A stretch of 64,000 bases of DNA from an uncultured virus (IMG/VR IMGVR_UViG_3300005294_000012) (lineage: Duplodnaviria; Heunggongvirae; Uroviricota; Caudoviricetes). Below, in pieces: positions 4,163 through 63,066 of this stretch. The notes beneath the pieces are model-generated. The model had not been told where the DNA came from, searched no databases, and saw only the letters and a program-made list of their open reading frames with translations. Location: the IMG/VR virus record IMGVR_UViG_3300005294_000012; one strand, given 5' to 3'. Both the position numbers and the translations under genes were made by a program. Each line of letters begins with the position of its first letter. The stretch's first letter is position 1.

Positions 4163-5551
4163 ATGCCCAAGGCCCTGTCAATGGCCGGGGTCTTTTCTGA
4201 GATCGGCTACTCCCCGCATAAGGTTCAGCAGCGCATCCATCGTCAGATCAACGAGAAGCGTTTCCGCGTGGTCTGCGCCGGCCGGCGTACCGGTAAGTCC
4301 ACTCTCGGCGGTCACGAGCTCGCCATCCGCGCGTTGCAGGCCCAGCTGCGTTACAACGAGCTGGAGCCGTTCGGCCGGCGCGCCGAGTACTGGATCGTCG
4401 GCCCGGAGTACTCCGATGCCGAGAAGGAATTCCGTGTTCTCTGGAACGACCTCACCACGCTCGAGGTGCCTCTTGATCATCCCGGCAGCTACAACGACCC
4501 CAACGGCGGGAACATGCACATCTCGCTGTGGGGCGGCAGATTCCAGGTGCACGCCAAGTCCGCTAAATACCCCGGCACTCTGGTCGGCGAGGCGCTCGAG
4601 GGAGTGATCCTGGCCGAGGCGGCGAAGCTGAAGCCGTCGGTCTGGACTAAATACATTCGACCTACATTGGCCGACTACAAGGGCTGGGCGCTGTTCAGCA
4701 GCACGCCCGAGGGCAAGAACTGGTTCTACGAGCAGTGGCAGCGCGGGCAGCGCGGAGACGGCAACTGGTGGTCGGTCCGGATGCCCAGCTGGACGAACAA
4801 CATCCTCTTCCCGCAAGGCCGCTACGACCCCGAAATCACGGACATGGAGTCCGAGATGACGGAGGAGAAATTCAACCAGGAGATCGGTGCCGACTTCACC
4901 GAGTTCGTCGGCCGGGTCTTCAAGGATTTCGACGAAGAGATCCACGTCGGGCACCACCTGTACGACCCGAATCTGCCGGTCTATCTGGCCACCGACTACG
5001 GCTACTCCAACCCCACCGTCGTGCTGTTCATCCAGGTCGACATCTGGGACAACGTCTTCGTGATCGGCGAGTACTACCACGTCCACAAGACCATCGACGA
5101 GGTGGCGCAGGAGATCTGGACGCACCCCCGGCTCGGCAACCTGGTGCGGGTTGCTCAAGATCTTTACCCCGACCCCGAAGACCCCGGGGCATCGAACTAC
5201 TTAGCCAAATCATGGAAGGTCACCGTCCACGGCGGCACCGGCGGTTTGATCAGGGATCGCATCGACATGATCCGGCGAGGCCTCAAGATCCAGCCCGAGT
5301 TCCTGATCCACGGGCACCCGGACAAGGCGCCGAAACTTTATGTCGATCACCAGTGCCGCAACACGATCAGGGAAATGCAGGATTATCGCTACCCTGAGAC
5401 CAAAGATGAGCTTACGCAGGACCCGAAAGAGAACCCGCTCAAGAAAGATGATCACTGCCCGGAGGCGCTGGGCCGGTTCTACAAGGGGCATTTCAGTGAC
5501 AGCGTAAGGAAGTCCCGGCAGGCGCGTCAGCGTACGGCCAGGTCGGCATAG
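4163..5551 (+). CDS. terL: Terminase large subunit (portal-linked copy)
   Basis: Walker A GRRTGKS, Walker B VILAEAAK, STPEG coupling motif, nuclease motifs TDYG and DDHCPEALGR; immediately upstream of the portal. Confidence 0.95.
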   Translation: MPKALSMAGVFSEIGYSPHKVQQRIHRQINEKRFRVVCAGRRTGKSTLGGHELAIRALQAQLRYNELEPFGRRAEYWIVGPEYSDAEKEFRVLWNDLTTLEVPLDHPGSYNDPNGGNMHISLWGGRFQVHAKSAKYPGTLVGEALEGVILAEAAKLKPSVWTKYIRPTLADYKGWALFSSTPEGKNWFYEQWQRGQRGDGNWWSVRMPSWTNNILFPQGRYDPEITDMESEMTEEKFNQEIGADFTEFVGRVFKDFDEEIHVGHHLYDPNLPVYLATDYGYSNPTVVLFIQVDIWDNVFVIGEYYHVHKTIDEVAQEIWTHPRLGNLVRVAQDLYPDPEDPGASNYLAKSWKVTVHGGTGGLIRDRIDMIRRGLKIQPEFLIHGHPDKAPKLYVDHQCRNTIREMQDYRYPETKDELTQDPKENPLKKDDHCPEALGRFYKGHFSDSVRKSRQARQRTARSA

Positions 5552-5559
5552 GGGGAACT

Positions 5560-7155
5560 TTGACAACGATCTGGGACACCGCGAGCCCGTTTACCGGGAC
5601 GCCGGCCGGCTGGTTGAACCAGGAGGACAGCCTCCGCCTCAACGCCTACCAGCTGTACGACCTGCTCAACGCCAACGACTCCTCCGCGATCAAACTCACG
5701 CTGCGTGAGGACGAAGAGAACCCGATCTATGTCCCGTCGGCGAAGCGGATCATCAAGACCAAGGCCCGTTATGTCTGCAAGGATCTCGGGTTCCAGATCG
5801 TCAACACCACCTCTGAGCTGGGCGAAGAGGGCGAGGTCGTCGTAGACCCGAGCCAACAGGTCGAGATGATCATGGCCTTCGGCAACTTCTTCACCCGCGA
5901 GCGGTTCTTCGCGATGTTCCGGTCGGCGATGAGCTTCGGCCTGGCGCAGGGCGACTGGTGCATCTACCTCTACGCCGACCCGTTGAAGCCCGAGGGATCC
6001 CGGGTATCGGTCACCGCGATTCAGCCCGAGACGTTCTTCCCGATCAAGGACCCCAAGGACAAGACCAAGATGGTCGGGGTTCGCATCGTCGAGGAGATCA
6101 TCGTCGACAACAAGAACTTGCTGAAGGTCCAGACCTGGCTGACGGCGCGCGCTTTCGGGCACCCGCAATACAACGACGGGCTATACGTCGATGGTGCGGA
6201 GATCGTCCGCGACATCCAGGTCATGGAGCCCACCGACTGGGAGGACCCCAAGAAGCGGAAGCTGGTCGCCCATCCCGACAACCTGCCGCAGGAACCGGTC
6301 GAAGGCATCACGCAGCTGCCGGTCTACCACTTCAAAGCCAACGAGAAGCGCGGCGAGTTCTACGGGATCAGCGACCTGGCCGGACTGGAGCGGGTCTTCT
6401 ACGGCGTCAACCAGGCAGTCACCGACGAGGATGTGGCGATCGCCATGGCCGGCCTCGGTGTCTATGTCAGCACCAACCGCCCGGTCGACGCGAACGGTAA
6501 CCCAACCGACTGGAAGATGGGCCCCCGCAGGGTGGTCGAGGTCGAGGGCGAGGACGGCCAATCCGCCGGCGACCAGTTCACCCGAGTTCCCGGCGTCACC
6601 AATATCCAGGCCAGCCAAGATCACTACAGGTACCTGCAGGACCAAGCCGAATCGACCGCCGGCATCTCCGGGGTGGCGCTTGGCGAGGTCGACACGGCCA
6701 TGGCCGAATCCGGGATCGCACTCTCCATCCGGTTGGCGCCGCTGCTGGACGACGCGAACGACAAGGACGAGCTGATCCTGGCCAAGCTGCGGCAGCTCTT
6801 CCACGACCTCAAAGAATGGTTCGCCGCGTACGAGACCAGCAACTTCCCCGAGGAGCTGGAGGTCGTCCCGGTCGTTGGGCCGAAACTGCCGCGCGACGTC
6901 GACAAGGACCAGGCCGTCTACAGCGACCTGCATCTGGCCGGCGTCATCCCGACACGGCTCTACATCGAGAAGCTCAACGAGCTCGGCTACGACCTGGGCA
7001 ACCCGGCAGACCTGATCGCCGAGGCTCAGAAAGAAGCCGACGAGAACTTCAAGCGACAGCAAGAGCAGCTGGACGCGGCAGGTATCGACGCTGGCGGGAA
7101 CCGTCTCGACCAGGAGGCCGGCGGGCCACCGTCTGATGAAGGGGCGGCGGCTTGA
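5560..7155 (+). CDS. Portal protein
   Basis: 531 aa following TerL; YGISDL and AESGIAL motifs; acidic tail. Confidence 0.9.
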   Translation: MTTIWDTASPFTGTPAGWLNQEDSLRLNAYQLYDLLNANDSSAIKLTLREDEENPIYVPSAKRIIKTKARYVCKDLGFQIVNTTSELGEEGEVVVDPSQQVEMIMAFGNFFTRERFFAMFRSAMSFGLAQGDWCIYLYADPLKPEGSRVSVTAIQPETFFPIKDPKDKTKMVGVRIVEEIIVDNKNLLKVQTWLTARAFGHPQYNDGLYVDGAEIVRDIQVMEPTDWEDPKKRKLVAHPDNLPQEPVEGITQLPVYHFKANEKRGEFYGISDLAGLERVFYGVNQAVTDEDVAIAMAGLGVYVSTNRPVDANGNPTDWKMGPRRVVEVEGEDGQSAGDQFTRVPGVTNIQASQDHYRYLQDQAESTAGISGVALGEVDTAMAESGIALSIRLAPLLDDANDKDELILAKLRQLFHDLKEWFAAYETSNFPEELEVVPVVGPKLPRDVDKDQAVYSDLHLAGVIPTRLYIEKLNELGYDLGNPADLIAEAQKEADENFKRQQEQLDAAGIDAGGNRLDQEAGGPPSDEGAAA

Positions 7156-9089
7156 ATGACAAGTGGATCCTCGAGCGTCTCTTCCTAGCAGTCCCCGAGC
7201 TGGCTGCTGACACCGGTTTCATTGACGCCCTGGTAGGCGCCGGCGTCCTCAACTCAGAGCACGTCAGGGTCTTCCGCAGACTCACCGGGCGTCACAAGAT
7301 CAGCGCGCTGCGCGGCCGGCCTCTGCTGCAGCGGATCATGGTGGTCGTCCCGGAGATCATCTCGGTGCGCACCATCAACCTGCTGGCCCGGTACAACCTG
7401 ATCCCGTCCAAAGAAGCGCACGCGCTGCGCATCACCTTGCGGGTCGCCAACCGACTGCTGCCGGCGCCGCTGAACACCGATCACATCTACGAGCGCCTGG
7501 CCATGATCTTCGATGACGTGTTCAGCCCGGAGATGGTGTCCTACCTGCGAGCGCTCGACAACGAGACCATCGACCTGGTGCGCGACGTGCTGCTGCGCGG
7601 CAAGACTCGACTGGGCAGCGCCGACGCAGCGCTGATCCGGCAGCTGCTGATCAATTCGATTCGCAGGGCCCAGGTGATGCGCTCGGTGATTTCGGCTGGC
7701 CGCATCACCCGGGACGTCGTGTCACAAGCCCGTGCGTTGGACAGTGTCTGGGACATTCTAGGGGTCACATTCGACGGCCTTTTGAGCCGACGAATGCTGA
7801 AGAACCTGGTCCGGGCTGGGGTGATCAGCGCTGAGAGGTACGAGCTGTGGGCCCATATCTCTGACCTGGGGCTCGGTGTGTGGCGCAAGGTGGCTGCTGG
7901 CCGGAATTACGAGTCTTGGGCAGCTCGGGGCTTGCTACTCAGCGAGGGAGTTCTCAGCCCGGAGCTGATCAAGGTCTTGCGAGATCTCGGGGTCATCTCG
8001 CAGCGCCAAGCGACGATCTTATATCCGGTGTCGCAGATCATGCGTGAGATAACACGCGGGCTCGGCGAGAAGTGGCGTACGTCTCGCCGGTACCGGATTG
8101 TGCCCGGTGAGGCACCGATCAAGACCTTCGCTCGGCACACTCAGACCACCGACAAGGCGATCCTGAAGCTACTCGCGCAGGCTGCCGACGACGCCGGCAA
8201 AGAGGCCGAGCGGCTGATGAAAACCCAGGGCTTCGCCAAGATGTCCAGGGCCCGCCAACAGCAGCTGGTCGCGCGGCAGCTGCACAACACGATGCAGGAT
8301 CTCTGGGAGGGCGCCGGCCACCTGGTGATCTTCGGCGAGAAGGAAACGGCCAAGGCCGCAATGGAGGCGCTGCCGTCCCTGCAGAAGCTGTTCGGGGCCA
8401 ACGCGGATGGCCAGGGGCTGGAGAGATCGCTCCTTGCCAGCGCCCGATCGGGCGTCGATAGCTTCATTAGCCGGGAAGAGCAACTTCGATCACTCTCCAG
8501 CCGTGTCTGGAAGAATATCGCTCTTCACAACGGACGGCTAGACAAGGAGATCGCCAAGGGCCTGCTCCGAGGCATGACGGCGCAGGAGCTGGCGGCGGTG
8601 GTACGAGGTTTCGTCCACCCCAATGTGCGGGGCGGAGTCTCTTACGCGGCCATGAGGCTGGCCCGGACCGAGATCAACAACGCCTTCCACAACACCGCGA
8701 TCCGCTACACCCGGGAGATGCCCTGGGTCGAGGGGTACGAGTGGCATCTGTCCGGCTCCCACCCCAAAACCGACATCTGTAATGATCTTGCCGAGCGCAA
8801 CGGTGGCCTCGGGCGAGGCGTCTATCAGAAGAACAATGTGCCTCAGAAGCCGCACCCATTGTGCCTGTGCTACATCACCCCGGCCACCGTCGACAACGCC
8901 CGGTTCTATCGGAACCTCCGTAACGGCGCGTACGACCGCTACCTCAACAGCGTCGAGCGGAACGGGGTTTTCGATGAAACCGACGATTACACGCCGACGA
9001 GGTGGCAGGAAATCGCCGGCGGCGCCGCTAAGGTTGCGCTGATCGCGGGGATGTCAGCTGCGGCACGCCGGTACTTACCAGCGGCTTGA
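7152..9089 (+). CDS. MuF/minor capsid (head morphogenesis) protein with long N-terminal extension
   Basis: RLARTEINNAFH, W-H-C..L and PHPLCLC motifs; follows the portal. Confidence 0.85.
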   Translation: MNDKWILERLFLAVPELAADTGFIDALVGAGVLNSEHVRVFRRLTGRHKISALRGRPLLQRIMVVVPEIISVRTINLLARYNLIPSKEAHALRITLRVANRLLPAPLNTDHIYERLAMIFDDVFSPEMVSYLRALDNETIDLVRDVLLRGKTRLGSADAALIRQLLINSIRRAQVMRSVISAGRITRDVVSQARALDSVWDILGVTFDGLLSRRMLKNLVRAGVISAERYELWAHISDLGLGVWRKVAAGRNYESWAARGLLLSEGVLSPELIKVLRDLGVISQRQATILYPVSQIMREITRGLGEKWRTSRRYRIVPGEAPIKTFARHTQTTDKAILKLLAQAADDAGKEAERLMKTQGFAKMSRARQQQLVARQLHNTMQDLWEGAGHLVIFGEKETAKAAMEALPSLQKLFGANADGQGLERSLLASARSGVDSFISREEQLRSLSSRVWKNIALHNGRLDKEIAKGLLRGMTAQELAAVVRGFVHPNVRGGVSYAAMRLARTEINNAFHNTAIRYTREMPWVEGYEWHLSGSHPKTDICNDLAERNGGLGRGVYQKNNVPQKPHPLCLCYITPATVDNARFYRNLRNGAYDRYLNSVERNGVFDETDDYTPTRWQEIAGGAAKVALIAGMSAAARRYLPAA

Positions 9090-15174: not shown

Positions 15175-18100
15175 GTGGGCCAGGTCAACCTGGGCACCGC
15201 GAGCGGCCGGATCGTCATCGACGGTAGCGGCGCCAAGTCTGGCTTTGACGTTGCCACATCCGCCGCGAACGCCTTTTTCAACGTCGTCGCCGACCGGGTC
15301 CACGAGATCGATCGGATCGGCACTCAGCTCACCAAGATCGGCGCGGTAGCCGCCGGCGGCTTCGGTCTGGCCATCAACACAGCTGCCAATTTCGAGCAGC
15401 GGCTGTCCGCCATCCAGGCCGTCTCAGGGGCCACCAGCGACCAGATGGCGCAGGTGTCCAAGACCGCCCTACGACTGGGCGCAGACACCAAGTTCTCGGC
15501 CGGTGAGGCTGCCAACGCCATCGAGGAGCTGGTCAAGGCCGGCATCTCGGTGCAGGACGCCCTGAACGGCGCAGCTGACGCCACCACGGCCTTAGCAGCC
15601 GCCGGCGAGATCGACCTGCCACGGGCAGCCGAGATCTCGGCGAACGCAATGAACGTGTTCAACCTGGCAGCTGCCGACATGCCGCACGTGGCCGACCTGA
15701 TCGCCGGCGCAGCGAACGCCAGCGCGATCGACGTCGAGCAGTTCGCCCAGTCCCTACAGGCCAGCGGTGCTGCGGCGAACCTGGCTGGCTTCAAATTCGA
15801 TGATCTTTCCCAGGCCATCGCGCTGATGGGCAACGCCGGCATCAAGGGCTCCGACGCCGGCACCTCGCTCAAGACGATGCTGCTGAACCTCAACCCTGTC
15901 ACGGACAAGCAGAAGGGGTTGATGGAGGACCTTGGTCTGATCACCAAGGAGGCGGGCAACCGGTTCTTCGACGCCGAGGGCAACGTCAAATCCTTCGCCG
16001 ACGTGGCGCAGGTGCTGCAGGACTCCCTGAAGGGCCAGACCAAGCAGCAGAAGCTGGCCACCCTGGAGACCTTGTTCGGCTCCGACGCGATCCGGGCCGC
16101 AGCTGTCGTCTCCGAGGCCGGCGCCCAGGGCTTCAACGACATGGCCACGGCCATGGGCAAGGTCACCGCAGCTGGGGTGGCAGCGACCCGAATGGACAAC
16201 CTGCGCGGCTCGCTCGAGCAGCTCAAGGGCTCGCTGGAGACCGCAGGAATCATCATCGGCACCGTCTTTCTGCCGGCACTGAAGCGAATCGTCGACTTCA
16301 TAACCCGCGTGGTCAACGTCTTCAACAACGCCCCCGAGGGGGTTCAGAAGTTCCTGACCGTAGTGGTGGCGCTAGGGGGTGGTCTGTCGCTGCTGACCGG
16401 CATTGCGATCAAGCTCCTGTTCGTCCTGATCCCGCTACTGGCCAAATTTCTGGGGTTCGCTGCTCTCAAAAGCATCTTCTCGATTTTCACTGCTGGCTTT
16501 GGTGCTCTCCGTGGCGGAGCCGGCATCCTCGGGGCGCTCAGCGTCGCCGGCGGGCGCGCGGCAGTCGTCTTCACCCGGATCGGCAAGGTCGGCAAGTTCC
16601 TCTTCGGCAGCCTCACCAAGATCCTGGGCGTACTCCGCTTCCTACGTGTGGCTATCCCGTTCGCCTTCGGCCCGTGGGGAGCGTTGATCGCCGGGATCAT
16701 CTCCCTACTGGTGATCTTGTTCAAGAAATTCCAGCCCTTCCACGACCTGGTGCTCCGGGTGGGCGATGCCATCAAGACCGGATTCGGCAAGGCGGTGCAG
16801 TTCGTCCAGGACGCCATCGCCCAGATCGTGGCCGGATTCCAGGGGCTCGAGGGCAGCGGGCCGGCGGCGGTGTTCGCCGAGCTCGGGGCTGGCGCGCGGA
16901 TCCTGTGGGAAGCCCTGAAGGAGCTAGCGGCTGTCTTCCAGGCGCAAGTAATGCCTGTTTTGCGGGAAGCCGGCGGACAAATTCTCTCGGCACTAGGGGG
17001 TGCCTTCAAGGAAATCTCCGGTTCCGTGCAAGACGCGGCACCGGCCTTCCGCCAGCTGGTCTCAACGCTCAAGCCTTTAGTGGCAGCCCTTGCCCCGGTA
17101 GTGGCCGCAATTCTGAAATTCCAGCTGGCCATCGTCAAGGTGGCAGTGATCCTGGTCGGGGTCCTGCTGTTCGCCTTGATCAAGATCGCCACCTTCGTCG
17201 CCGGCAAGCTGCTGCCCCCGTTCATCCGGTTCGCCACCTGGCTGGTAACCGGGCTTATCGGCGTACTCGGACCGGTGGTCGGTTTCTTCGTCCAGGTCGC
17301 TGCGGCCATCGCATCCTTCGTCGCCGGCGTGGTCGGATTCTTCACCGGGGCAGAGGCGGCAGCTGGCAGCGGAGCAGCCAAAATCCAGGGCGTCCTATCC
17401 GGGATAGCTGCTTTCTTCGTCGGCATCTGGAACGCGGTCAAGGCCGTCGTTATCGGGGCCTGGACGGCCATCTGGACCTTCATCACCACGGCGATCAACA
17501 CCGTAAAGACGATCATCACCACCGGACTGAACTTCATAAAGGGGCTATGGACCGCTTTCTGGGGTAGCCAGCTCGGACAGCTGGTGCTCAACGCCCTCGG
17601 GCTGATCGGCGACATCATCAAGCTGGCCCTGGCAGCCATCAAATTCGTCTTCCTAGCCTGGATCGCTGGAGTAAAGGCCAGCTGGAACATTTTCTGGACC
17701 GGGCTGACTGCCATCGTGAGCGCCGTCTGGAACGGCATCAAGGCCGTAGTGCTGGCCGGTATCGCCGTCGTAAAGGCAGCCTTCATCGCCGGGTGGAACG
17801 CGGTTCGGGCGGCGACAGCTGCCGTGCTGGCGCCCATCGTCGCCTTTGTGGCCGGCAGAATCCGGGCAATCCGGGCTGTGGTGTTGGCCGTTTGGAATGC
17901 GATCAAGGCCGCTACTGCTGCCGCCTGGGCGGTGATCCGGGCCAGAATCGTCACCCCGATCGCTGCCGCAGCTGCTGCCGTGTACGCGCGGACCGCCGGC
18001 ATCCGTGCCCGGGTATCGGCGGCGTGGAACGCAGTCAAGTCAGCCACCGTCGCCGCCTGGAACCGGGTGGTCTCAGCGATTAAGACAGCGGTGGACAAGG

Positions 18101-20579: not shown

Positions 20580-21742
20580 TGTTCCAGGTCCCTTGGTATG
20601 TGATCAACTCGCTGAACAGTGTGACCAAGCGTCGCATTGTCGTCGAGTGGTCCAACGACCGCTTCAAGACGGTCGGAGGNACCGTCGATGCCTATGACGC
20701 GAACTTCACCTGTGANCTGAACGCCCAGGTCCGCTGGGCAGCNACCTGCTCNGTGATCAACATCGACTCCAGGATCAACGACAAGACCACCTGGATGCGN
20801 CCCTACCTGGAGATCAAGGGCATGCGGTCCAACTGGTGGCGGATCCCGATGGGCGTCTATCGGGTCTACTCGATCAAGATCAGCGACATCTTCGCCGACC
20901 TCACCCTGGACGGTCTGGAGGCCATCGTCCGGGACCACACCTTCCACGTGCCGCGCACGCTGCCGCTGAGCAAGTCCGACAGCCGGCGGACCACGCTGAC
21001 CAAGCTGCTCCGAGAGTCGATCCCGTTCGTTCCGGTGGTCTGGAACCTGAAAGACTCCACCTCCGCGATGGCCAAGGTGACGATCGAGCGCGATCGCTGG
21101 GGGCTCATCGACGGCGACGGCGACGCCAAGTCGATCACCAACAGCCTGGCAGCCGATTGCTTCTGTGATCGGATCGGGCAGTTCGTGGTGTCACCGACGC
21201 CGATCGATACCGCCAAACCGGTGTGGGAGATCACGGTCGACGCCGGCGTCAAGGTGAGCTCGGCGACCACGTTGTCCCGGGAGAACATGAAGAACGTCTG
21301 GACGGTGTGGGCCGAGCCGGGAGGCACCAAGAAGAACGTCGGCCCGGTGCACGTCTGGGACAACGATCCCGGCAGTGACACGTACGCCGGCACAAATCCG
21401 ATCAAGAACTTCGCGCGGGATTCAAAGGCGTTCGGAATCGTCCCGGGCTACTACCAGAACCCACTGCTGAAGACCACCAAGGCCTGCGAGCAGGTGGGCC
21501 GGAAGCGTCTCGCGGTGTCGCTGGCCGAGCGCCGCACAGTAGAGATCACCTCGATCTTCAACCCGACCCTGGACGCCGGCGACTGCATCGCCCTGGTGCC
21601 CGACGGATCGACCAGGAAAAGCGGCTTCATCATCGAACAGGTGGCCTATTCGATCGAGGACGCCTCGACGTCGATGACGATGCGCACCCAGGGTCCGCCG
21701 GCCTTCGCCGAGTCGGCCGATGACGAGGGGGCCATCGAATGA
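20579..21742 (+). CDS. Minor tail (hub/Tal-like) protein
   Basis: IPMGVYRV, NPTLDAGD motifs; synteny. Confidence 0.75.
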   Translation: MFQVPWYVINSLNSVTKRRIVVEWSNDRFKTVGXTVDAYDANFTCXLNAQVRWAXTCXVINIDSRINDKTTWMXPYLEIKGMRSNWWRIPMGVYRVYSIKISDIFADLTLDGLEAIVRDHTFHVPRTLPLSKSDSRRTTLTKLLRESIPFVPVVWNLKDSTSAMAKVTIERDRWGLIDGDGDAKSITNSLAADCFCDRIGQFVVSPTPIDTAKPVWEITVDAGVKVSSATTLSRENMKNVWTVWAEPGGTKKNVGPVHVWDNDPGSDTYAGTNPIKNFARDSKAFGIVPGYYQNPLLKTTKACEQVGRKRLAVSLAERRTVEITSIFNPTLDAGDCIALVPDGSTRKSGFIIEQVAYSIEDASTSMTMRTQGPPAFAESADDEGAIE

Positions 21743-26137: not shown

Positions 26138-26595
26138 GATGGATCGAGTAACCCTGGCGCTCGCCGCGCTGTATGGCCAGCGGATCGCTGAGCTATTGGT
26201 CGAGAGTCTGGCCGATGTGCTCGCTGAAATCGACCGCAAAGAAGGGCTGCGCAACCTGTCGTACCAAGAGATCGCAGCCAACGCGCTCGAGATGATGGGA
26301 AGGGGTTTGTGATGGCAAAACTGAAGCCCAAGGAACGCTTCGTTGTGAAGTGCTCGGTGTACGTGACCACGTATTCGATGTCCCGGCAGCGCGCTGAGCA
26401 GCTGGCGGAGGAGATGAATCGTCCGGAGTCCAAGTGCTCCGAGACTGACCACGTCGCTATTGCAGAGGAGGTGCTGCGACCTTTCCATGGCCCCCTGATC
26501 TAGGAGGTGATCCACAGGAGTAGGCATCCATGTTCGAGCCCGGGCCATCCCCGCCCGGGCTTGTTCACGTTTGTCTAGTCAATCGGGAGGACTTA

Positions 26596-27200
26596 TGAGC
26601 ACGACGGACGACGTCTTGATCAAGAAAGCTGGGAAGTCTTCCGGCGAAGTGATCAACAACATTCTTTCCTACTGGGAGGCAGCGACCGAGCGCAACCGCG
26701 AGGACGGCGCCCAGTGGTACCTGATCAATCAGCAGGCCATCGATGAGATGGCCCACGGGAGCGGGGTGAGCCTGGACACAGCTGCGGCTGTGGTGGCTCA
26801 CCTATCACCCCGAATTCACTGGTCACGAAACATCATCGCGGCTCACAGTGTGCTGAACGGGCTGCCGGTGACCGGGATCATGACCAGAAGTCTGGCCGGC
26901 GCCCGGGCCGCGATTGCGGCCTATCAGATGGGTGAGGACCCGCTGAAGACACTCAAGGGCCCGAAGATTCGCAACTTCGCGGCCAACCTGATCGGTGACT
27001 CTGACGCGGTCACGATCGACATCTGGGCGGGACGCGTGGCGCTGGANTCAACGGCGGACCTGGAATTGATCATGGCCCGCGCCGGGGTCTACNNCGCGCT
27101 GGCNCAGTGCTACCGCGAGGCTGCCGCCCGCGTCGATGTCACNCCATCAACCATGCAGGCCACTTGCTGGATCGTGGCGCGAAACGGAAGGGCCGATTGA
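26596..27200 (+). CDS. Conserved phage protein with helical, possibly DNA-glycosylase-like fold
   Basis: G..WY, A.LSP...W..N, GPK..NF..N, VTIDIWA, MQA..W motifs; GGAGG RBS. Confidence 0.6.
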
Positions 27201-27202
27201 CC

Positions 27203-27697
27203 ATGTCTTACGACTACCGGAAAGACTGGGAAGAGAGCCGCAAGCGCGAGCTCGAGGAGCACCGTGCCTACTGGAGCCTGCGCGTTCATTGGGCACCGTT
27301 CCTAGGCCCTGACAGGCTCGGCCGCACCCTGAAGTGTGGCAGGGCCGGTGGCCCCTCCAGCTGGTGGACCTACACCGCGCCGCCACAGCTGAAGCCGTGG
27401 AAGCATTCCACGAAGCCCACCGCGTCCACGACTGCGCACGTCGAGATGTCGCAGCGCGTGTTTCGTGACCATAACACCGGCTGGGAGTTCACCTTCTGGG
27501 CGCTGGCGCCCAAGGCGCATCAACGGTCTGCCGCAGAGGCTGCTCACACCGAGTGGGTCTGGCTGATCTTGGAAGGCACCAACGGGCGCGGAGTCCACCA
27601 AGCTCTGGTCGACAACGAAACCGACCAGGTCTATTGGTGGGACAAGATCCCGGCGCACTACGTGGCACCCGCAGAAAAACTTTCTAATTCCGCTTGA
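27203..27697 (+). CDS. Hypothetical protein
   Basis: ATG 2 nt after the preceding stop. Confidence 0.6.
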   Translation: MSYDYRKDWEESRKRELEEHRAYWSLRVHWAPFLGPDRLGRTLKCGRAGGPSSWWTYTAPPQLKPWKHSTKPTASTTAHVEMSQRVFRDHNTGWEFTFWALAPKAHQRSAAEAAHTEWVWLILEGTNGRGVHQALVDNETDQVYWWDKIPAHYVAPAEKLSNSA

Positions 27698-27723
27698 CAC
27701 GCCGTCATGGTGCGACATATTAT
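27694..27723 (+). promoter_or_regulatory. Near-consensus sigma70 promoter P2 with the same 16-bp box
   Basis: TTGACA-18 nt-TATTAT; CGTCATGGTGCGACAT at 27703-27718. Confidence 0.85.
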
Positions 27724-27779
27724 GAAGACATGAGCGCGAGGGTACGAGCCGACAGAGACTCGTACTCCGCGCCCAGCAA

Positions 27780-27859
27780 GGGGCTGACTTTGGTGTCGCC
27801 CGGTCGGAAAGCCGCACGCGGAACCGACCGGTACGCGAGTTCGATTCTCGCCAGCTCCA
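27780..27859 (+). ncRNA. Minimal tmRNA-like RNA (tRNA-like domain only)
   Basis: Acceptor GGGGCTG/CAGCTCC-A with G3:U; 13-nt unpaired D-loop; 8-bp stem; T-arm GCGAG-TTCGATT-CTCGC. Confidence 0.75.
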
Positions 27860-27890
27860 CTCCAACCAAAACCCAAGAAGGGGAAGCAGC

Positions 27891-28874
27891 ATGACTCTCA
27901 TCACCCGCAGCACCCGCACCTACCACCTCGGCCAGGACGTCAGCCAGGCAACCAGCGCTCGCGAGGCCCTGCAGCTCGCCAACATGGACTGGGATCCCAT
28001 CGTGGTCCCCGGAGACTTCGTCTCGCTGGCCAAGCCCGACAAGGACGCCGCCAACGGTCACGGCCCGTGGGCACTGTTCGCAGCGCCAGGCCTGGAGTTC
28101 CTGGCTCGCGGCGACACCCGCAACATCCTCGGCGTGCACGGCGGGCGCTACCAGGAGGTCTCCAACCGGCAGGCCTTCGCGGTCGCCGATGTTCTCAAGG
28201 CCCAGGGCGCGGTCTTCAGCCGTGCAGCTGAGATCAACTTCGGCCGTCGGGCGTACCTGACCATGGACCTGCCAGGCGTGACCTACAGGATCGCCGAGGG
28301 CGACGAGATCACGTTCGGTATCCGGTTCCTGGCCACCCACGACGGCTCTGGCAGGCTCAAGGGTTCGGTCGAGGCCGAGCGTCTGGTTTGCGCCAACGGG
28401 CTCACGGTTCCGATCAAGGGAACCAAGATCGAATACGCCATCGCGCACACCGCGTCGGCCGAGCTGCGCCTCTCTGAGGCCAAAGAGATCATGCTCGGCG
28501 CCACCCGGTACGCTCGGGCCTTCGCAGCCGCTGCGGAGCACCTGATCGATACCCCGATGAGCGTTGCCGAGTTCGGCGCCTTCGTTGACGGTCTCTTCCC
28601 CGAGCCGAAGATCGAGGAGCGTCGGGCCCACCAGAACTGGGCCGATCGCCGCGCCGAGCTCAAGACGCTCTTCACCGAGGCCGAGACCCAGGATTCCGGG
28701 CGCGGCACCAAGTGGGCAGCGTTCAACGCGGTCACCGAGTACGTCGACTGGGGCACCCCGGTGCAGCAGGGCGGCGCGGAGTCCGTCGAGATGGCCCGTG
28801 CAATCCGTCAGATCGAGAGCACCGAGCGCCAGGCCACCAAGGACCGCGCGTTCACGATGGTGCTCGCGGCCTGA
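27891..28874 (+). CDS. DUF932-family phage/plasmid protein
   Basis: THDGSG, RLVCANGL, HTASA, GTKWAAFNAVTEYVD motifs. Confidence 0.85.
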   Translation: MTLITRSTRTYHLGQDVSQATSAREALQLANMDWDPIVVPGDFVSLAKPDKDAANGHGPWALFAAPGLEFLARGDTRNILGVHGGRYQEVSNRQAFAVADVLKAQGAVFSRAAEINFGRRAYLTMDLPGVTYRIAEGDEITFGIRFLATHDGSGRLKGSVEAERLVCANGLTVPIKGTKIEYAIAHTASAELRLSEAKEIMLGATRYARAFAAAAEHLIDTPMSVAEFGAFVDGLFPEPKIEERRAHQNWADRRAELKTLFTEAETQDSGRGTKWAAFNAVTEYVDWGTPVQQGGAESVEMARAIRQIESTERQATKDRAFTMVLAA

Positions 28875-28884
28875 TCCCCTAGAC

Positions 28885-29000
28885 CTCCTGGCCCTGGCTA
28901 CCTCGCGAAGTGTGCACCTAGTAGCGGCGGTACCCCGGGCCAGGAGCCAGACCCGGGCCCCGGCGTAGGCCTGCCTGTAGCGGCAGGGCGTCGGGGCCCG
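28885..29000 (+). other. Two adjacent long stem-loops in an intergenic region
   Basis: CTCCTGGCCC/GGGCCAGGAG (28885-28946) and CGGGCCCCGGCG/CGTCGGGGCCCG (28954-29000). Confidence 0.6.
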
Positions 29001-37044: not shown

Positions 37045-37970
37045 TGCGATCCAAGATCCAAGACCTGGGGGACATGGGATTCGTCCGGATGGCTGTGGTG
37101 GCCCCCGGCGGATTCGGCAAGACCCGGTTCGCCGGCACCGCTCCCGACGCGCTGTTCCTGACCGTCGACCCCGAGGGCACACTGTCGGCCAAGTTTGCGG
37201 GGTCGACCGCCAAAGAGATCGTGATCCACGATCAAGAAGACTTGATCAACGCGCAGCTGGACTTGTTCGACGGCATCGTAGGTGAGAAGCCGAACCAGCG
37301 GATAGTGCTCGACGGCAAGCGGTATCGCTGGCTGATCGTGGACGATGCCACGGCGGTTCAGTACATCTACATGCGGACCGCGATCGACAACCGGATCCGC
37401 CGCACCCTGGCTCGAGGCGGTACCCAGAAGCCTGGCGATGCCTTGCCCGAGATGGAGATGGCCGACATCACCGCGCTGCTGGAGGGCGAGGGCAACCTCA
37501 ACCGCTACGTACCGGAGCTGAACGACCGCTACACCTACCAGAACGCGATCATCGACTTCTTCAAGAAGATCTCCGGGCTGCCGATCAACGTGATCTTTGT
37601 CTGCAAGCGGGCGATGTCCAGCTACGAGGTCGGCGAGGAGGGCAGCGACGCCTACTGGACCGCCGCCATCGAAGGGCAGCGCGGCGCGGTTGCCGAGCAG
37701 TGCCTCGGGTTCTGTCCGATCGTCGCCTCCGGAGAGATCATCCAGCGCGACAAGAAGGAAGTCCGGCGGTTCATCTTCACCCACATCGGCAAGCATCGCG
37801 GCAAGGACCGCACCAACACTCTCGGCCGGGTCAAGGACAACCTGACAGTGCCGCTGATGATGCGAATCATCGAGAACGGCGCGACGGCAGATGCCGAAGT
37901 TGATGACGGAGAGGAGGTAGCGTCCACCCCAGCTCGACCACGTCCGCGTAGGCGGATCCAAGCCCAGTAA
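37044..37970 (+). CDS. AAA ATPase (Sak4/AAA_24-like)
   Basis: PGGFGKT, LIVDD, GKDR motifs; between nuclease and SSB-like gene. Confidence 0.75.
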   Translation: MRSKIQDLGDMGFVRMAVVAPGGFGKTRFAGTAPDALFLTVDPEGTLSAKFAGSTAKEIVIHDQEDLINAQLDLFDGIVGEKPNQRIVLDGKRYRWLIVDDATAVQYIYMRTAIDNRIRRTLARGGTQKPGDALPEMEMADITALLEGEGNLNRYVPELNDRYTYQNAIIDFFKKISGLPINVIFVCKRAMSSYEVGEEGSDAYWTAAIEGQRGAVAEQCLGFCPIVASGEIIQRDKKEVRRFIFTHIGKHRGKDRTNTLGRVKDNLTVPLMMRIIENGATADAEVDDGEEVASTPARPRPRRRIQAQ

Positions 37971-55849: not shown

Positions 55850-56386
55850 ATGGTTACCCGACTTCAGATCGTTGACGACCCGGGTGAGGACGACCGCGAC
55901 GAGGAGGCTGCCGGCGTCCCGCAGCGGGAACGCGCGGCCAACATAATGGGCACCGAGCGCCGCCAGCTGATCATCGAGCTGGCCCGGGGTACCCGGCGGA
56001 TCGTTGATCTTGCCTTCGAGCACGAACGCCCGCCGCAGGTCATCTCGAATTTCAAATACCGGAATAAGCAGGAGATCCTGCAGATGCGACGGGTGCTGGA
56101 TTCCAAAACAGCTGATCTACATTTCGCAATTCAGCTGCACCGAATCGCCGATGCCGAGCGCCATCTGGCCTTTCTCGATGATCAGATCCGCAGAATGCAG
56201 GAGGGATTCCTGGACGGCGAGGAGGTCGACACCAAGGAATTGCGAGGTCTTATCGCCGACGCGTCGAAACTTCGTAAGGAGATCCGCGAGGAATTGAAGC
56301 CGACCATGTCCCTGGGCGATATTCAGGTGACCCCGTCGAAGAAATACGGAGGCCAAAACTGGTTTGGTGAGGAGGGCGAGACATGA
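55850..56386 (+). CDS. Terminase small subunit-like HTH protein
   Basis: HTH-like N-terminus plus helical hairpin; ATGA overlap with the TerL-like gene. Confidence 0.55.
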   Translation: MVTRLQIVDDPGEDDRDEEAAGVPQRERAANIMGTERRQLIIELARGTRRIVDLAFEHERPPQVISNFKYRNKQEILQMRRVLDSKTADLHFAIQLHRIADAERHLAFLDDQIRRMQEGFLDGEEVDTKELRGLIADASKLRKEIREELKPTMSLGDIQVTPSKKYGGQNWFGEEGET

Positions 56387-57678
56387 GTATGCCTGTTCTC
56401 CTCGACGACTACGTGGCGATCGGTTCCAACTGGGAGGCGTGCACAGCTACCGAGCAGGAGGTGATCGTCACCGGTCAATCGGGCAGCGGGAAGACCCGCG
56501 CGCTGCTGGAAAAGGTCCATCGGGCTTGCAAGGAGTTCACCAACATCAAGGTGTTGCTGCTGCGCAAGCGCAGTGCTGATCTGGCCGGCAGCGCTCTGGA
56601 GTTGTTCCGTGATCATGTCGCTGGGCCGGCGCTGCACACCGGTGAGGTGAGGTTCTTCGACGCTTCCCGCTCGGAGCCGGCGCGCTATGAGTACCGCAAC
56701 AGCGGGTCGATGATCGTGCTGGGTGGGCTGTGGCCTCCGACGCAGGCGACCAAGGTCACCAACTCGGAGTGGGACATCGTCTGTGTGATCGCGGCGAACG
56801 AGCTGACCGAGCACGACTGGGAGCTACTGATCCCGCTATGCCGCAACGGGTCGCTGCCGATCAACCAGCTGATCGGAGAATGCCAGCCACAAGGCGATGA
56901 TCACTGGATCCTGCAGCGCGCCAAGCGCGGCCAGCTGCGACTCATCGAGGGCGTCATCGAGGACAACCCGCGCTGGTTCCGCAACGGCGAGATAACCAGG
57001 GAGGGACGGGCCTTCATCGCCAAGCTGGACGCTCTCACCGGGGTCACCAAGCTGCGCAACCGGTACGGCTACTGGGTGGCCGCACAAGGCCAGTGCTGGC
57101 CCAGCTACAACGACAAGGTCCACCTGATCGAGCCGTTCCCGTTCCCGTTCCACTGGCCCACCTGGTGGAGCATCGACTTCGGGAAGGTGCACCCGTTCGC
57201 GTTCGGGCTGTTCACCATGGACCCCAACGGCCGAGCGTTCCTAGTGAAGCAGATCCACATGTCCGGCCGGGAGACCGAGGAGCACTGCCGCGACATCCTG
57301 CGGATCACCCAGCCGTACGCCTCGCCGACCGACATCATCACCGATCACGCGGCCAACGACGTGGCGATCTGTGAGCGGATGTTCGGCCGCAAGGTGGTCT
57401 TGGCCAACAAGTCCGTACTCGAGGGCATCGACTACGTGGAGAAGCGGTGGGCGCAGCGCAAGCTGTTCATCTTCGATGACTCCCTGGTCGAGATCGATGA
57501 GACGTTGCGGTCGCGTGGCCGGCCGATCGACCTGCAGTCGGAGATCCCGGGGTACGTGTGGCAGTCGGGCAAGCGTTCCAAGGAGGGCCCGGTGAAGGCC
57601 TGGGACGATAGTTGTGACATGACGCGTTACTTCATCGCCGAGCAGGACGCGCCCGAGCAGTGGGAGGTGAGCTGGTGA
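56383..57678 (+). CDS. Second terminase large subunit (PBSX-like)
   Basis: GQSGSGKT, EDNP, SIDFG..HP, ITDH, PVKAWDDSCDMTRY. Confidence 0.85.
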   Translation: MSMPVLLDDYVAIGSNWEACTATEQEVIVTGQSGSGKTRALLEKVHRACKEFTNIKVLLLRKRSADLAGSALELFRDHVAGPALHTGEVRFFDASRSEPARYEYRNSGSMIVLGGLWPPTQATKVTNSEWDIVCVIAANELTEHDWELLIPLCRNGSLPINQLIGECQPQGDDHWILQRAKRGQLRLIEGVIEDNPRWFRNGEITREGRAFIAKLDALTGVTKLRNRYGYWVAAQGQCWPSYNDKVHLIEPFPFPFHWPTWWSIDFGKVHPFAFGLFTMDPNGRAFLVKQIHMSGRETEEHCRDILRITQPYASPTDIITDHAANDVAICERMFGRKVVLANKSVLEGIDYVEKRWAQRKLFIFDDSLVEIDETLRSRGRPIDLQSEIPGYVWQSGKRSKEGPVKAWDDSCDMTRYFIAEQDAPEQWEVSW

Positions 57679-62977: not shown

Positions 62978-63050
62978 TCCTCGGTAGCTCAGCCGGCAGA
63001 GCGTCGGATTGTTAATCCGCAGGTCGCTGGTTCGAATCCAGCCCGGGGAG
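62978..63050 (+). tRNA. tRNA-Asn(GTT)
   Basis: TCCTCGG/CCGGGGA acceptor, GCTC/GAGC D arm, loop TTGTTAA, GCTGG-TTCGAAT-CCAGC T arm; CCA not encoded. Confidence 0.93.
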
Positions 63051-63066
63051 CCGTAACCTGATCAGC

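Follow-up and report, generated by a model that had tools for sequence, protein, structure and literature searches.

The locus and its setting

The window analysed here, a stretch of 64,000 nucleotides from an uncultured virus, holds a siphovirus-like genome in which nearly all genes lie on the + strand, as judged from PHROG and Pfam searches. Between the genes for structure and lysis and those for replication lies an RNA gene of 80 nt, counted up to the discriminator base, which reads directly from the sequence as a tRNA-like domain only and is called a mini-tmRNA gene in what follows (Table 1). The DnaE-like polymerase of the window has its best identity, 47.5%, to Arthrobacter phage Wollypog and Microbacterium phages, a kinship which makes it probable that the host is an actinobacterium. 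Neither an integrase nor an SmpB gene was found among the 39 + 49 window ORFs scanned.

Table 1. Features of the mini-tmRNA locus and of the surrounding genome, in window coordinates
Feature	Position	Strand	Basis or remark
Terminase gene	4163		structural/lysis genes
Portal gene	5560		structural/lysis genes
Major head protein gene	10256		structural/lysis genes
Tape measure gene	15175		structural/lysis genes
Holin gene	24311		structural/lysis genes
DUF7178 gene	26571		followed by the mini-tmRNA and the DUF932 gene
Upstream ORF	27107-27697	+	ORF; GC3 0.75; stop codon within the -35 hexamer
Promoter-like site, sigma-70 type	27694-27723	+	TTGACA (27694-99), 18-nt spacer, TATTAT (27718-23); consensus match only
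Predicted leader hairpin	27734-27772	+	MFE and centroid folds of 27728-27895; z -3.1; 0/200 shuffles
Acceptor stem, 5' strand GGGGCTG	27780-27786	+	G3 = 27782; partner 27852-58
D-loop analogue, tmRNA-type, ACTTTGGTGTCGC	27787-27799	+	13 nt, without D stem; RF00023 alignment
Helix P2 (tmRNA helix 2a analogue), 5' strand CCGGTCGG	27800-27807	+	partner 27824-31
Apex AAAGCCGCACGCGGAA	27808-27823	+	A-rich asymmetric internal loop and small CCGC/GCGG hairpin; family comparison
Helix P2, 3' strand CCGACCGG	27824-27831	+	sequence, RNAfold, family covariation
Linker TAC	27832-27834	+	family consensus GGAC, including the last P2 base
T arm GCGAG / TTCGATT / CTCGC	27835-27851	+	identical to the DS6A T arm
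Acceptor stem, 3' strand CAGCTCC, with discriminator A (27859)	27852-27859	+	T70 = 27856
DUF932 protein gene, 327 aa	27891-28874	+	first gene downstream; PF06067, E 4.6e-37
Helicase gene	32511		replication genes
Exonuclease gene	35145		replication genes
Primase gene	38978		replication genes
DnaE-like polymerase gene	42511		replication genes

The mini-tmRNA starts about 56 nt behind the promoter-like site, which agrees with the consensus at 11 of 12 positions and is the best consensus match of the whole window in a simple scan; in the RNA region, two such sites were found where shuffles would lead one to expect 0.3. The first-pass annotation had placed the strongest-looking promoter of the window here, with a leader hairpin between it and the RNA, and both features held up when recalculated. 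The upstream ORF, the start of which is uncertain because of the N letters at 27047-27143, gave no family match in PHROG and Pfam scans and is probably the last gene of the preceding unit. On the other side, no terminator-like site is listed between the mini-tmRNA and the DUF932 gene, and the two are probably co-transcribed.

The stretch was found mainly in a soil metagenome run; no RNA run is listed among the public runs that contain it, which has no bearing on whether the gene is expressed. In addition, contigs of three other soil or rhizosphere samples carry the leader, the mini-tmRNA and the DUF932 gene together at about 95% identity. In these contigs, the leader hairpin has three substitutions and one deletion, and the sole RNA change among the 40 listed of 64 differences is A27823G, at a position where the family described below alternates between A and G. 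The DUF932 gene is about as conserved as the mini-tmRNA in this comparison, which drew on contigs of four DNA runs, and no extra constraint on the RNA can be claimed from it.

Anatomy of the RNA and recognition by general models

The acceptor stem has seven pairs, including G3:T, that is, G3:U70 in the RNA, and is followed by an A as discriminator, all of which are read from the sequence. The D-loop analogue ACTTTGGTGTCGC is matched by cmscan to the Rfam tmRNA consensus cuGGaUUCGAC; written as GGTGTCGCC, it represents a minor variant of the GG..UCGAC-like tmRNA type. Helix P2 comprises 8 bp and is closed by only the 16 nt of 27808-27823, where tmRNA has its pseudoknots and tag region. No anticodon arm, tag frame or resume codon is found in 27780-27859, and between the apex and the 3' end all frames are free of stop codons. 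A hidden tag frame, which was considered, is ruled out by the lack of a stop codon. CCA is not encoded (CTC comes next), C74 being the encoded part of it. Every element of the anatomy described in the first-pass annotation was recovered where it had been placed, and the RNAfold centroid is exactly this structure, with a folding energy (-37.6 kcal/mol, z -2.2) that is weak evidence alone, as 5 of 200 shuffles fold as well.

General RNA finders pass over the element. In the window, ARAGORN calls only a tRNA-Asn (62978-63052), with no tRNA, tmRNA or tag peptide at 27780-27859, and an Rfam scan at gathering thresholds likewise gives only the tRNA-Asn and misses the mini-tmRNA. Under permissive thresholds, applied to the 301 nt of 27650-27950, the best Rfam match is the tmRNA model RF00023 (27780-27862, 43.2 bits, E 3.3e-16), a score below the gathering cut-off of 47 from a match that spans model positions 1-374 with 304 of the 374 positions skipped. 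By model scores, the tmRNA match is far beyond chance. Since cmscan keeps the best family of a clan, here RF00023, and drops those of the same clan that score lower, the test of RF02544, the model of jakobid mitochondrial tmRNAs, is to be read from a best-per-clan output, in which it is not better than RF00023. A better fit to an ordinary or decayed tRNA, which would have told against the first-pass annotation, was thus not obtained.

The published precedent, phage DS6A

The literature has included a 'TLD only' phage tmRNA since 2009/2014. In the passage concerned, PMC4131195 (Hudson, Lau, Williams 2014) lists 'Mycobacterium phage DS6A (TLD only)' with tmID 11587 and states that tmRNA is strongly inhibited by a similar molecule, with SmpB titration offered as a possible cause, citing Mao et al. 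2009 for an inhibition that occurs 'whether or not chargeable'. The corresponding entry text of the 2025 tmRNA database (PMC11915505) says of 'Phage__Mycobacterium.9' that it inhibits endogenous tmRNA in E. coli. The idea of a mini-tmRNA is therefore sound and not new, and the novelty implied by the first-pass annotation has to be given up. Titration of SmpB, as it had been suggested there, is also what the cited passage proposes for the homologous DS6A RNA. No phage TLD-only case beyond DS6A was found in a search of open-access papers, and both the size of the family and its conserved apex, which is similar to the helix-2a/2b junction of tmRNA, appear to be unpublished.

A low-stringency blastn search matches the window element to DS6A at 89.1% over 55 nt, in an unannotated gap of the phage genome (NC_023744 28478-28557). 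The two RNAs are the same part for part, with an acceptor bearing G3:U70 and A73, a tmRNA D-loop and a short helix 2, with the apex motif CCGCACGCGG in common and with identical T arms; 67 of the 80 bases are identical, each RNA scores 43.2 bits against RF00023, and both match R1, the covariance model introduced below. Moreover, each is unannotated and occupies an intergenic gap where the lysis/late region ends, ahead of the replication genes. The phages themselves are different and unrelated; a megablast search of phage records with 27000-29000 returned nothing. The differences concern acceptor pair 6, which is U-A in the window and C-G in DS6A, helix 2, which differs in sequence and has 8 bp in the window but 5-6 bp in DS6A, and the end of the D-loop, GCC in the window and GAC in DS6A. 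The Streptomyces phages BRock and pSt2308 also gave unannotated blastn matches to the mini-tmRNA and, together with DS6A, possess the full architecture, the common apex motif and compensatory changes in the acceptor stem. No full-length tmRNA is present in the window, DS6A, BRock or pSt2308.

A family of mini-tmRNAs

DS6A was reported as a single case, whereas the window element belongs to a family in which more than 100 different sequences are known. When viral contigs were scanned for the apex motif, 36 loci came up, 24 of them complete elements and 12 chance matches; of the 17 loci that bacterial genome contigs yielded, five are real, under the labels Sideroxyarcus, Poriferisphaera, Mycobacterium, Pseudonocardia and Nitriliruptorales. 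All five bacterial carrier genomes also have a full-length tmRNA (132-217 bits), and the Pseudonocardia genome has two copies of the mini-tmRNA. A third scan specified only GGTTTCGAC, which is the D-loop consensus across the family, together with GGAC and the T loop, and left the apex, the acceptor and the 3' strand of the T stem free. It gave at least 120 loci, with 95 unique sequences among the matches listed; all 95 of these have a fully paired T stem and 93 have a complete acceptor (7/7 pairs), the two failures being due to a 1-nt deletion or one mismatch, while G1-C72, G2-C71, G3:U70 and the discriminator A are found in all 93 paired acceptors.

The covariance model R1 was made from 19 gaplessly aligned phage members with the window left out. 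It recognizes the window element over all 78 positions with 79.5 bits (E 8.5e-20) and as a single copy in the 64 kb, whereas matches in phage records that are not mini-tmRNAs reach at most 29 bits, and the tRNA-Ala genes that flank related loci are absent from the R1 matches at E <= 1e-5. A metagenome scan for the subtype of the window and DS6A added one more member (L201, 78.6 bits), with an uninformative context. Over 100 sources, R1 gave 101 matches, aligned as A3 (101 distinct sequences). In A3, the fitting of which to R1 favours the structure, standard pairs fill 97.0% of the cells, shuffles giving 65.5%; the third scan's counts for acceptor and T stem are independent of A3. The covariation score of A3 is 0.733, with 0.146 for shuffled alignments, none of 500 shuffles reaching 0.733, and it is at most 0.10 when the partners are slid by 1-3 columns.

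The homologues covary in all four helices over the 101 sequences, as had been anticipated, and 19 of the 23 pairs change on both sides. The invariant pairs are G1-C72, G2-C71 and G3:U70 (101/101), together with the last pair of the T stem, and acceptor positions 4-7 covary across the family. As for helix P2, it is 93.8% paired in A3, all seven modelled pairs vary on both sides, and an anchor-based count gives all four Watson-Crick pair types at every position. Of 110 unique sequences, 102 have C74 after the discriminator and 25 encode the whole CCA. Next to the SmpB-contact bases, the window differs from the family consensus, with GCC where most members have GAC and GGTAC for GGAC, a difference which, among the 110 unique sequences, is common to L014 and L049 only.

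With the RF00023 match, the R1 score, the covariation and the lack of a stop codon, the first-pass view of a phage tmRNA made of the tRNA-like domain only, with no tag ORF, stands. As far as sequence comparison goes, there is good support for 27780-27859 being a tmRNA carried by a phage of which only the tRNA-like domain and a stub of helix 2 are left. The pattern of conservation shows that the alanine identity set is under selection, as are the SmpB-contact loop and the helix-2 junction. A functionless relic, whether it came from a tRNA-Ala by decay, from a tmRNA gene by internal deletion or from an ssrA attachment site as a leftover, is an explanation to which we give very little credence. 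Support comes from Poriferisphaera, where such an element lies directly in front of a tyrosine integrase gene, the start of which falls within the 3' end of the element. Nevertheless, both acceptor halves are present in the window and no integrase is found among its scanned ORFs; tRNA models fit worse than tmRNA; compensatory changes in four helices and invariant identity bases extend over 101 sequences; and the element persists in relatives from other samples. An attP site or a fragment of the ssrA 3' end had also been considered as such and was rejected, given both the 5' and 3' halves and the integrase-free set of 39 + 49 ORFs.

The apex and the helix-2 junction

In most members, helix P2 is capped by an AAAR stretch, then a small hairpin and then one or two purines. 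The hairpin opens with two nearly invariant C-G pairs and its inner pairs covary (helix 3 of A3), the variants including CCGC/GCGG, CCAC/GTGG, CCCC/GGGG and CCGT/ACGG, with GNRA loops in some, while a minority of members has plain short loops or an AT-rich variant at the apex. In the Rfam tmRNA consensus, helix 2a has 12 pairs, a 3-nt bulge on the 5' side (GAa), C-G-rich pairs and one unpaired base in the 3' strand, and five full-length host tmRNAs aligned by cmscan have 1-3 bases, mostly purines, at the bulge columns (AA, GA, CG, GG and, with an insertion, U/GC). Compared with helix 2a, helix P2 with GAC has about two pairs fewer. The apex looks like a helix-2a/2b junction that has been kept together with a stub of helix 2b, a likeness and not an established homology. 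Two other descriptions of the apex were tried and rejected: a kink-turn is at odds with the second tandem pair and with the strand that has no bulge, and neither the window nor DS6A preserves a pairing of the apex with the D-loop.

Genomic contexts of the family

The first-pass annotation had suggested that homologues be sought upstream of DUF932 genes in related phages, a link that the search did not bear out. R1 finds a mini-tmRNA in none of nine loci with DUF932 homologues and in none of five whole records of the nearest cultured relatives, whereas the same search recovers DS6A, BRock and pSt2308; the element is therefore dispensable in the lineage of those five. The relatives of the DUF932 protein are distant, with at most 32% identity in phage records and 25-29% in six viral loci. 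Elsewhere, mini-tmRNAs lie between the prohead protease and major capsid genes (15 and 18 loci), upstream of a DnaB-like gene (10 loci), in tRNA arrays (many members) and, in one bacterial record, near a small terminase gene. No protein neighbour is constant, and the neighbours differ by group, which points to host factors as partners. Host rather than phage factors are also what one meets in the genomes themselves, as carrier bacteria keep a full-length tmRNA and the window phage has no SmpB among the ORFs scanned.

These contexts bear on two alternatives in which the ribosome has no part. A tRNA-shaped processing signal only, at which RNase P and 3' nucleases would set the 5' end or the stability of the DUF932 mRNA and from which the excised RNA would emerge with no role, would suit the place of the element between the promoter-like site and the first gene, with no terminator-like site between, as well as the position in other phages between protease and capsid genes of one operon. 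However, such a signal needs no G3:U70, A73, tmRNA D-loop or apex, all of which are kept across more than 100 diverged sequences, and many members lie in tRNA arrays, not before genes, so we hold this explanation to be improbable. Still less probable is an alanyl-RNA with a role away from the ribosome, either as an alanine donor for a transferase or as a decoy for a defence nuclease that attacks tRNA-like RNA or tmRNA. The conserved alanine identity set is its sole support, but the conserved D-loop of tmRNA type points to SmpB, and neither a transferase nor a defence gene is a conserved neighbour, contexts differing by group.

Comparison with related RNAs

Bacterial one-piece tmRNA (SsrA, RF00023) and the window element agree in their alanine identity elements, in the SmpB-contacting bases of the D-loop, in the T arm and in the opening part of helix 2, and the apex of the element is like the helix 2a/2b junction in having a 5' bulge followed by C-G pairs (compare the Rfam consensus GAa-cacccc). 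According to the structural description in PMC8363625, the SmpB contacts are A15, U17, C18, G19 and A334; by our own assignment on the Rfam consensus GGaUUCGAC, the window would keep U17, C18 and G19 and the A of the 3' linker. The same description has helix 2 passing between the subunits, touching uS19 and crossing bridge B1a. Unlike SsrA, the window element is devoid of the mRNA-like domain, the resume codon, the tag frame, the stop codon and pseudoknots PK1-PK4, and without an mRNA-like domain it cannot direct tagging or termination.

A similar reduction to a tRNA-like domain without a tag frame is described for tmRNAs of jakobid mitochondria and some plastids that have no CDS (RF02544; PMC11915505, in its account of these forms). 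In the organelles, however, SmpB is encoded in the nucleus and the short form replaces the full-length one, whereas the phage RNA would act beside a host tmRNA, as in the five carrier genomes. Laboratory TLD fragments have the same parts and, in the experiments quoted in PMC3895274 and PMC8363625, accept a nascent peptide and bind SmpB, EF-Tu and the ribosome; they are man-made, whereas the mini-tmRNA is a natural conserved gene with a conserved apex of its own. As regards tRNA-Ala, the acceptor with G3:U70, the discriminator A and the T arm are common to both, but the D stem and the anticodon arm are missing from the window element, which neither ARAGORN nor the Rfam tRNA model calls.

A proposed mode of action

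The reading that we favour, and consider reasonably likely, is that of a gene for a mini-tmRNA without a tag, the RNA product of which is charged, bound by SmpB and in competition with the host tmRNA; its expression, processing, charging, binding and benefit we infer from conserved features. The RNA would be transcribed early from the promoter-like site, as the leader of an operon that opens with the DUF932 gene, and would be excised by the tRNA-processing enzymes of the host, with RNase P acting at the 5' end, followed by 3' trimming and CCA addition. Host AlaRS would then charge it with alanine through G3:U70 and A73, and host SmpB would bind it through the tmRNA-type D-loop. In this state the RNA would compete with the full-length tmRNA of the host for SmpB, and probably for stalled ribosomes, and would thereby block or short-circuit tagging by trans-translation in the infected cell.

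The alanine identity set is invariant and C74 nearly so, while neighbouring pairs drift freely. Since neither is needed for titrating SmpB, both are probably selected for charging and hence for an action on the ribosome, which suggests that the mini-tmRNA is charged as well as bound by SmpB. As a counterpoint, the inhibition in E. coli, in the terms in which it is cited, occurs with or without chargeability, and titration alone leaves the conservation of the alanine set unexplained.

Rather than inhibiting, the charged RNA might rescue ribosomes without a tag, in that only alanine would be added, once or as a tail, and another factor would release the chain, no degradation tag being attached. 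The conservation of the AlaRS identity set and C74 argues for it, as SmpB binding alone would not need them; so do the peptidyl transfer to truncated, TLD-only tmRNA that PMC3895274 mentions, citing Shimizu and Ueda 2006, and the view given in PMC11915505 that mitochondrial and plastid tmRNAs without a CDS, the plastid forms being among those it describes, are thought to help with incomplete mRNAs. A conserved helix-2 junction, too, would matter for passage through the ribosome, in view of the contacts with uS19 and bridge B1a described in PMC8363625. Nevertheless, with no stop or resume codon, release needs an unnamed second step; the phage supplies no SmpB among the ORFs scanned, so that any gain would be limited by the SmpB of the host; and the experiment cited in PMC4131195 found inhibition, not rescue. 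On these grounds, we regard tag-free rescue as doubtful.

Going one step beyond the favoured competition with host tmRNA, it is conceivable, and we put it forward tentatively, that the RNA is a working ribosome ligand and not just a sponge for SmpB. In that case, the alanyl-RNA would be taken into stalled ribosomes along with SmpB and EF-Tu of the host, where it would end or rewrite trans-translation without a tag, through one alanine or an alanine tail, the apex being a required contact with the ribosome or a factor.

Implications and distribution

The window thus offers a previously unannotated RNA gene that would head a putative early operon of an uncultured actinophage-like virus, which suggests, from its sequence and position, that the phage may interfere with ribosome rescue in the host from the first minutes of infection. 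Standard finders of tRNA and tmRNA miss mini-tmRNAs, and the records examined leave them unannotated. Seen against viral contigs, the single published case of DS6A becomes one member of a large family, and its natural variants bear on how a tmRNA without a message acts on the ribosome, also in mitochondria and plastids, and on why phages would alter trans-translation, with Streptomyces phages as carriers that are harmless to work with. If the RNA does act as a ribosome ligand, phages of several bacterial phyla would carry a minimal, reprogrammed rescue RNA, which would be the first tractable model for the organellar tmRNAs without a CDS.

As for the carriers, cultured Streptomyces and Stenotrophomonas phages are among them, and the carriers in bacterial records are labelled Actinomycetota (Mycobacterium, Pseudonocardia, Nitriliruptorales), Sideroxyarcus and Poriferisphaera, with terminase or integrase genes adjoining in two. 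One Mycobacterium-labelled contig also has, in common with the window, a weak DUF7178/phrog_3842 neighbour (28% over 127 aa).

Genomic setting of the mini-tmRNAs

In the head-operon group, comprising L075, L104, L124 and about 15 related viral loci, the mini-tmRNA lies within the head operon, flanked on one side by the prohead protease gene (PF04586) and on the other by that of the major capsid protein (PF05065), a position which implies that in this group it is expressed late rather than early.

Upstream of the mini-tmRNA, both in the window and in L052, a contig labelled as Mycobacterium, a DUF7178 (phrog_3842) gene is found at a distance of a few hundred bases and in the same orientation. 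The two DUF7178 proteins have only 28% identity over 127 aa. The arrangement may represent a shared neighbourhood. The window contains 11 N bases (at 239, 20680-20800 and 27047-27143), five of which fall where the DUF7178 gene and the ORF at 27107-27697 overlap, and, therefore, the frames and the gene boundary are uncertain there.

In the Poriferisphaera chromosome (L049), the start of a tyrosine integrase gene falls within the 3' end of the mini-tmRNA, which may be an integration site or may travel with one. Paired copies were also found: the viral contig L126 carries two mini-tmRNAs (1177-1253 and 2489-2564) about 1.2 kb apart, and a single Pseudonocardia genome has two on separate contigs (L064 and L068). 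As regards the cultured phages GiJojo and Stenotrophomonas virus Jojan60, the coding sequences annotated over their mini-tmRNAs may be wrong calls, since the RNA occupies the same stretch.

Features considered in the window and in other loci carrying mini-tmRNAs
Feature	Location	Strand	Source or remark
MuF-like head-morphogenesis protein, 645 aa	window 7152-9089	+	PHROG scan
DUF7178 / phrog_3842 gene	window about 26571-27200	+	PHROG, Pfam scans
Second ORF, weak match to terminase large subunit (nuclease part)	window 56383-57678	+	PHROG, E 2e-10
Second-best promoter-like site, TTGACT-17-CATAAT	window 59085	+	consensus match 10/12
tRNA-Asn (GTT) gene	window 62978-63052	+	ARAGORN, Rfam
mini-tmRNA	L049 2972-3048	+	Poriferisphaera chromosome
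Tyrosine integrase gene (PF00589)	L049 3024-4118	+	Poriferisphaera chromosome
DUF7178 / phrog_3842 gene	L052 3348-3914	-	Mycobacterium-labelled contig
tRNA	L077 4588-4660	same as L077 mini-tmRNA	
mini-tmRNA	GiJojo (H82) 17025-17102		under annotated 'hypothetical protein'
mini-tmRNA	Jojan60 (H84) 37725-37804		under annotated 'hypothetical protein'

tRNAs and other genes of the window

The tRNA-Asn gene was the sole tRNA called in the window by ARAGORN and Rfam. At most 2.5 kb away from their mini-tmRNA, several contigs (L077, L088, L089 and L129) have an ordinary tRNA-like gene whose acceptor bears G3:U70 and whose anticodon context is TGC.

The second terminase-like ORF is distant from the packaging terminase (4163-5551) and gave no match in the Pfam scan. 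In the MuF-like protein, the C-terminal part gave an additional match (E 1.3e-8), to a PHROG that carries the annotation Bxa ADP-ribosyl transferase.
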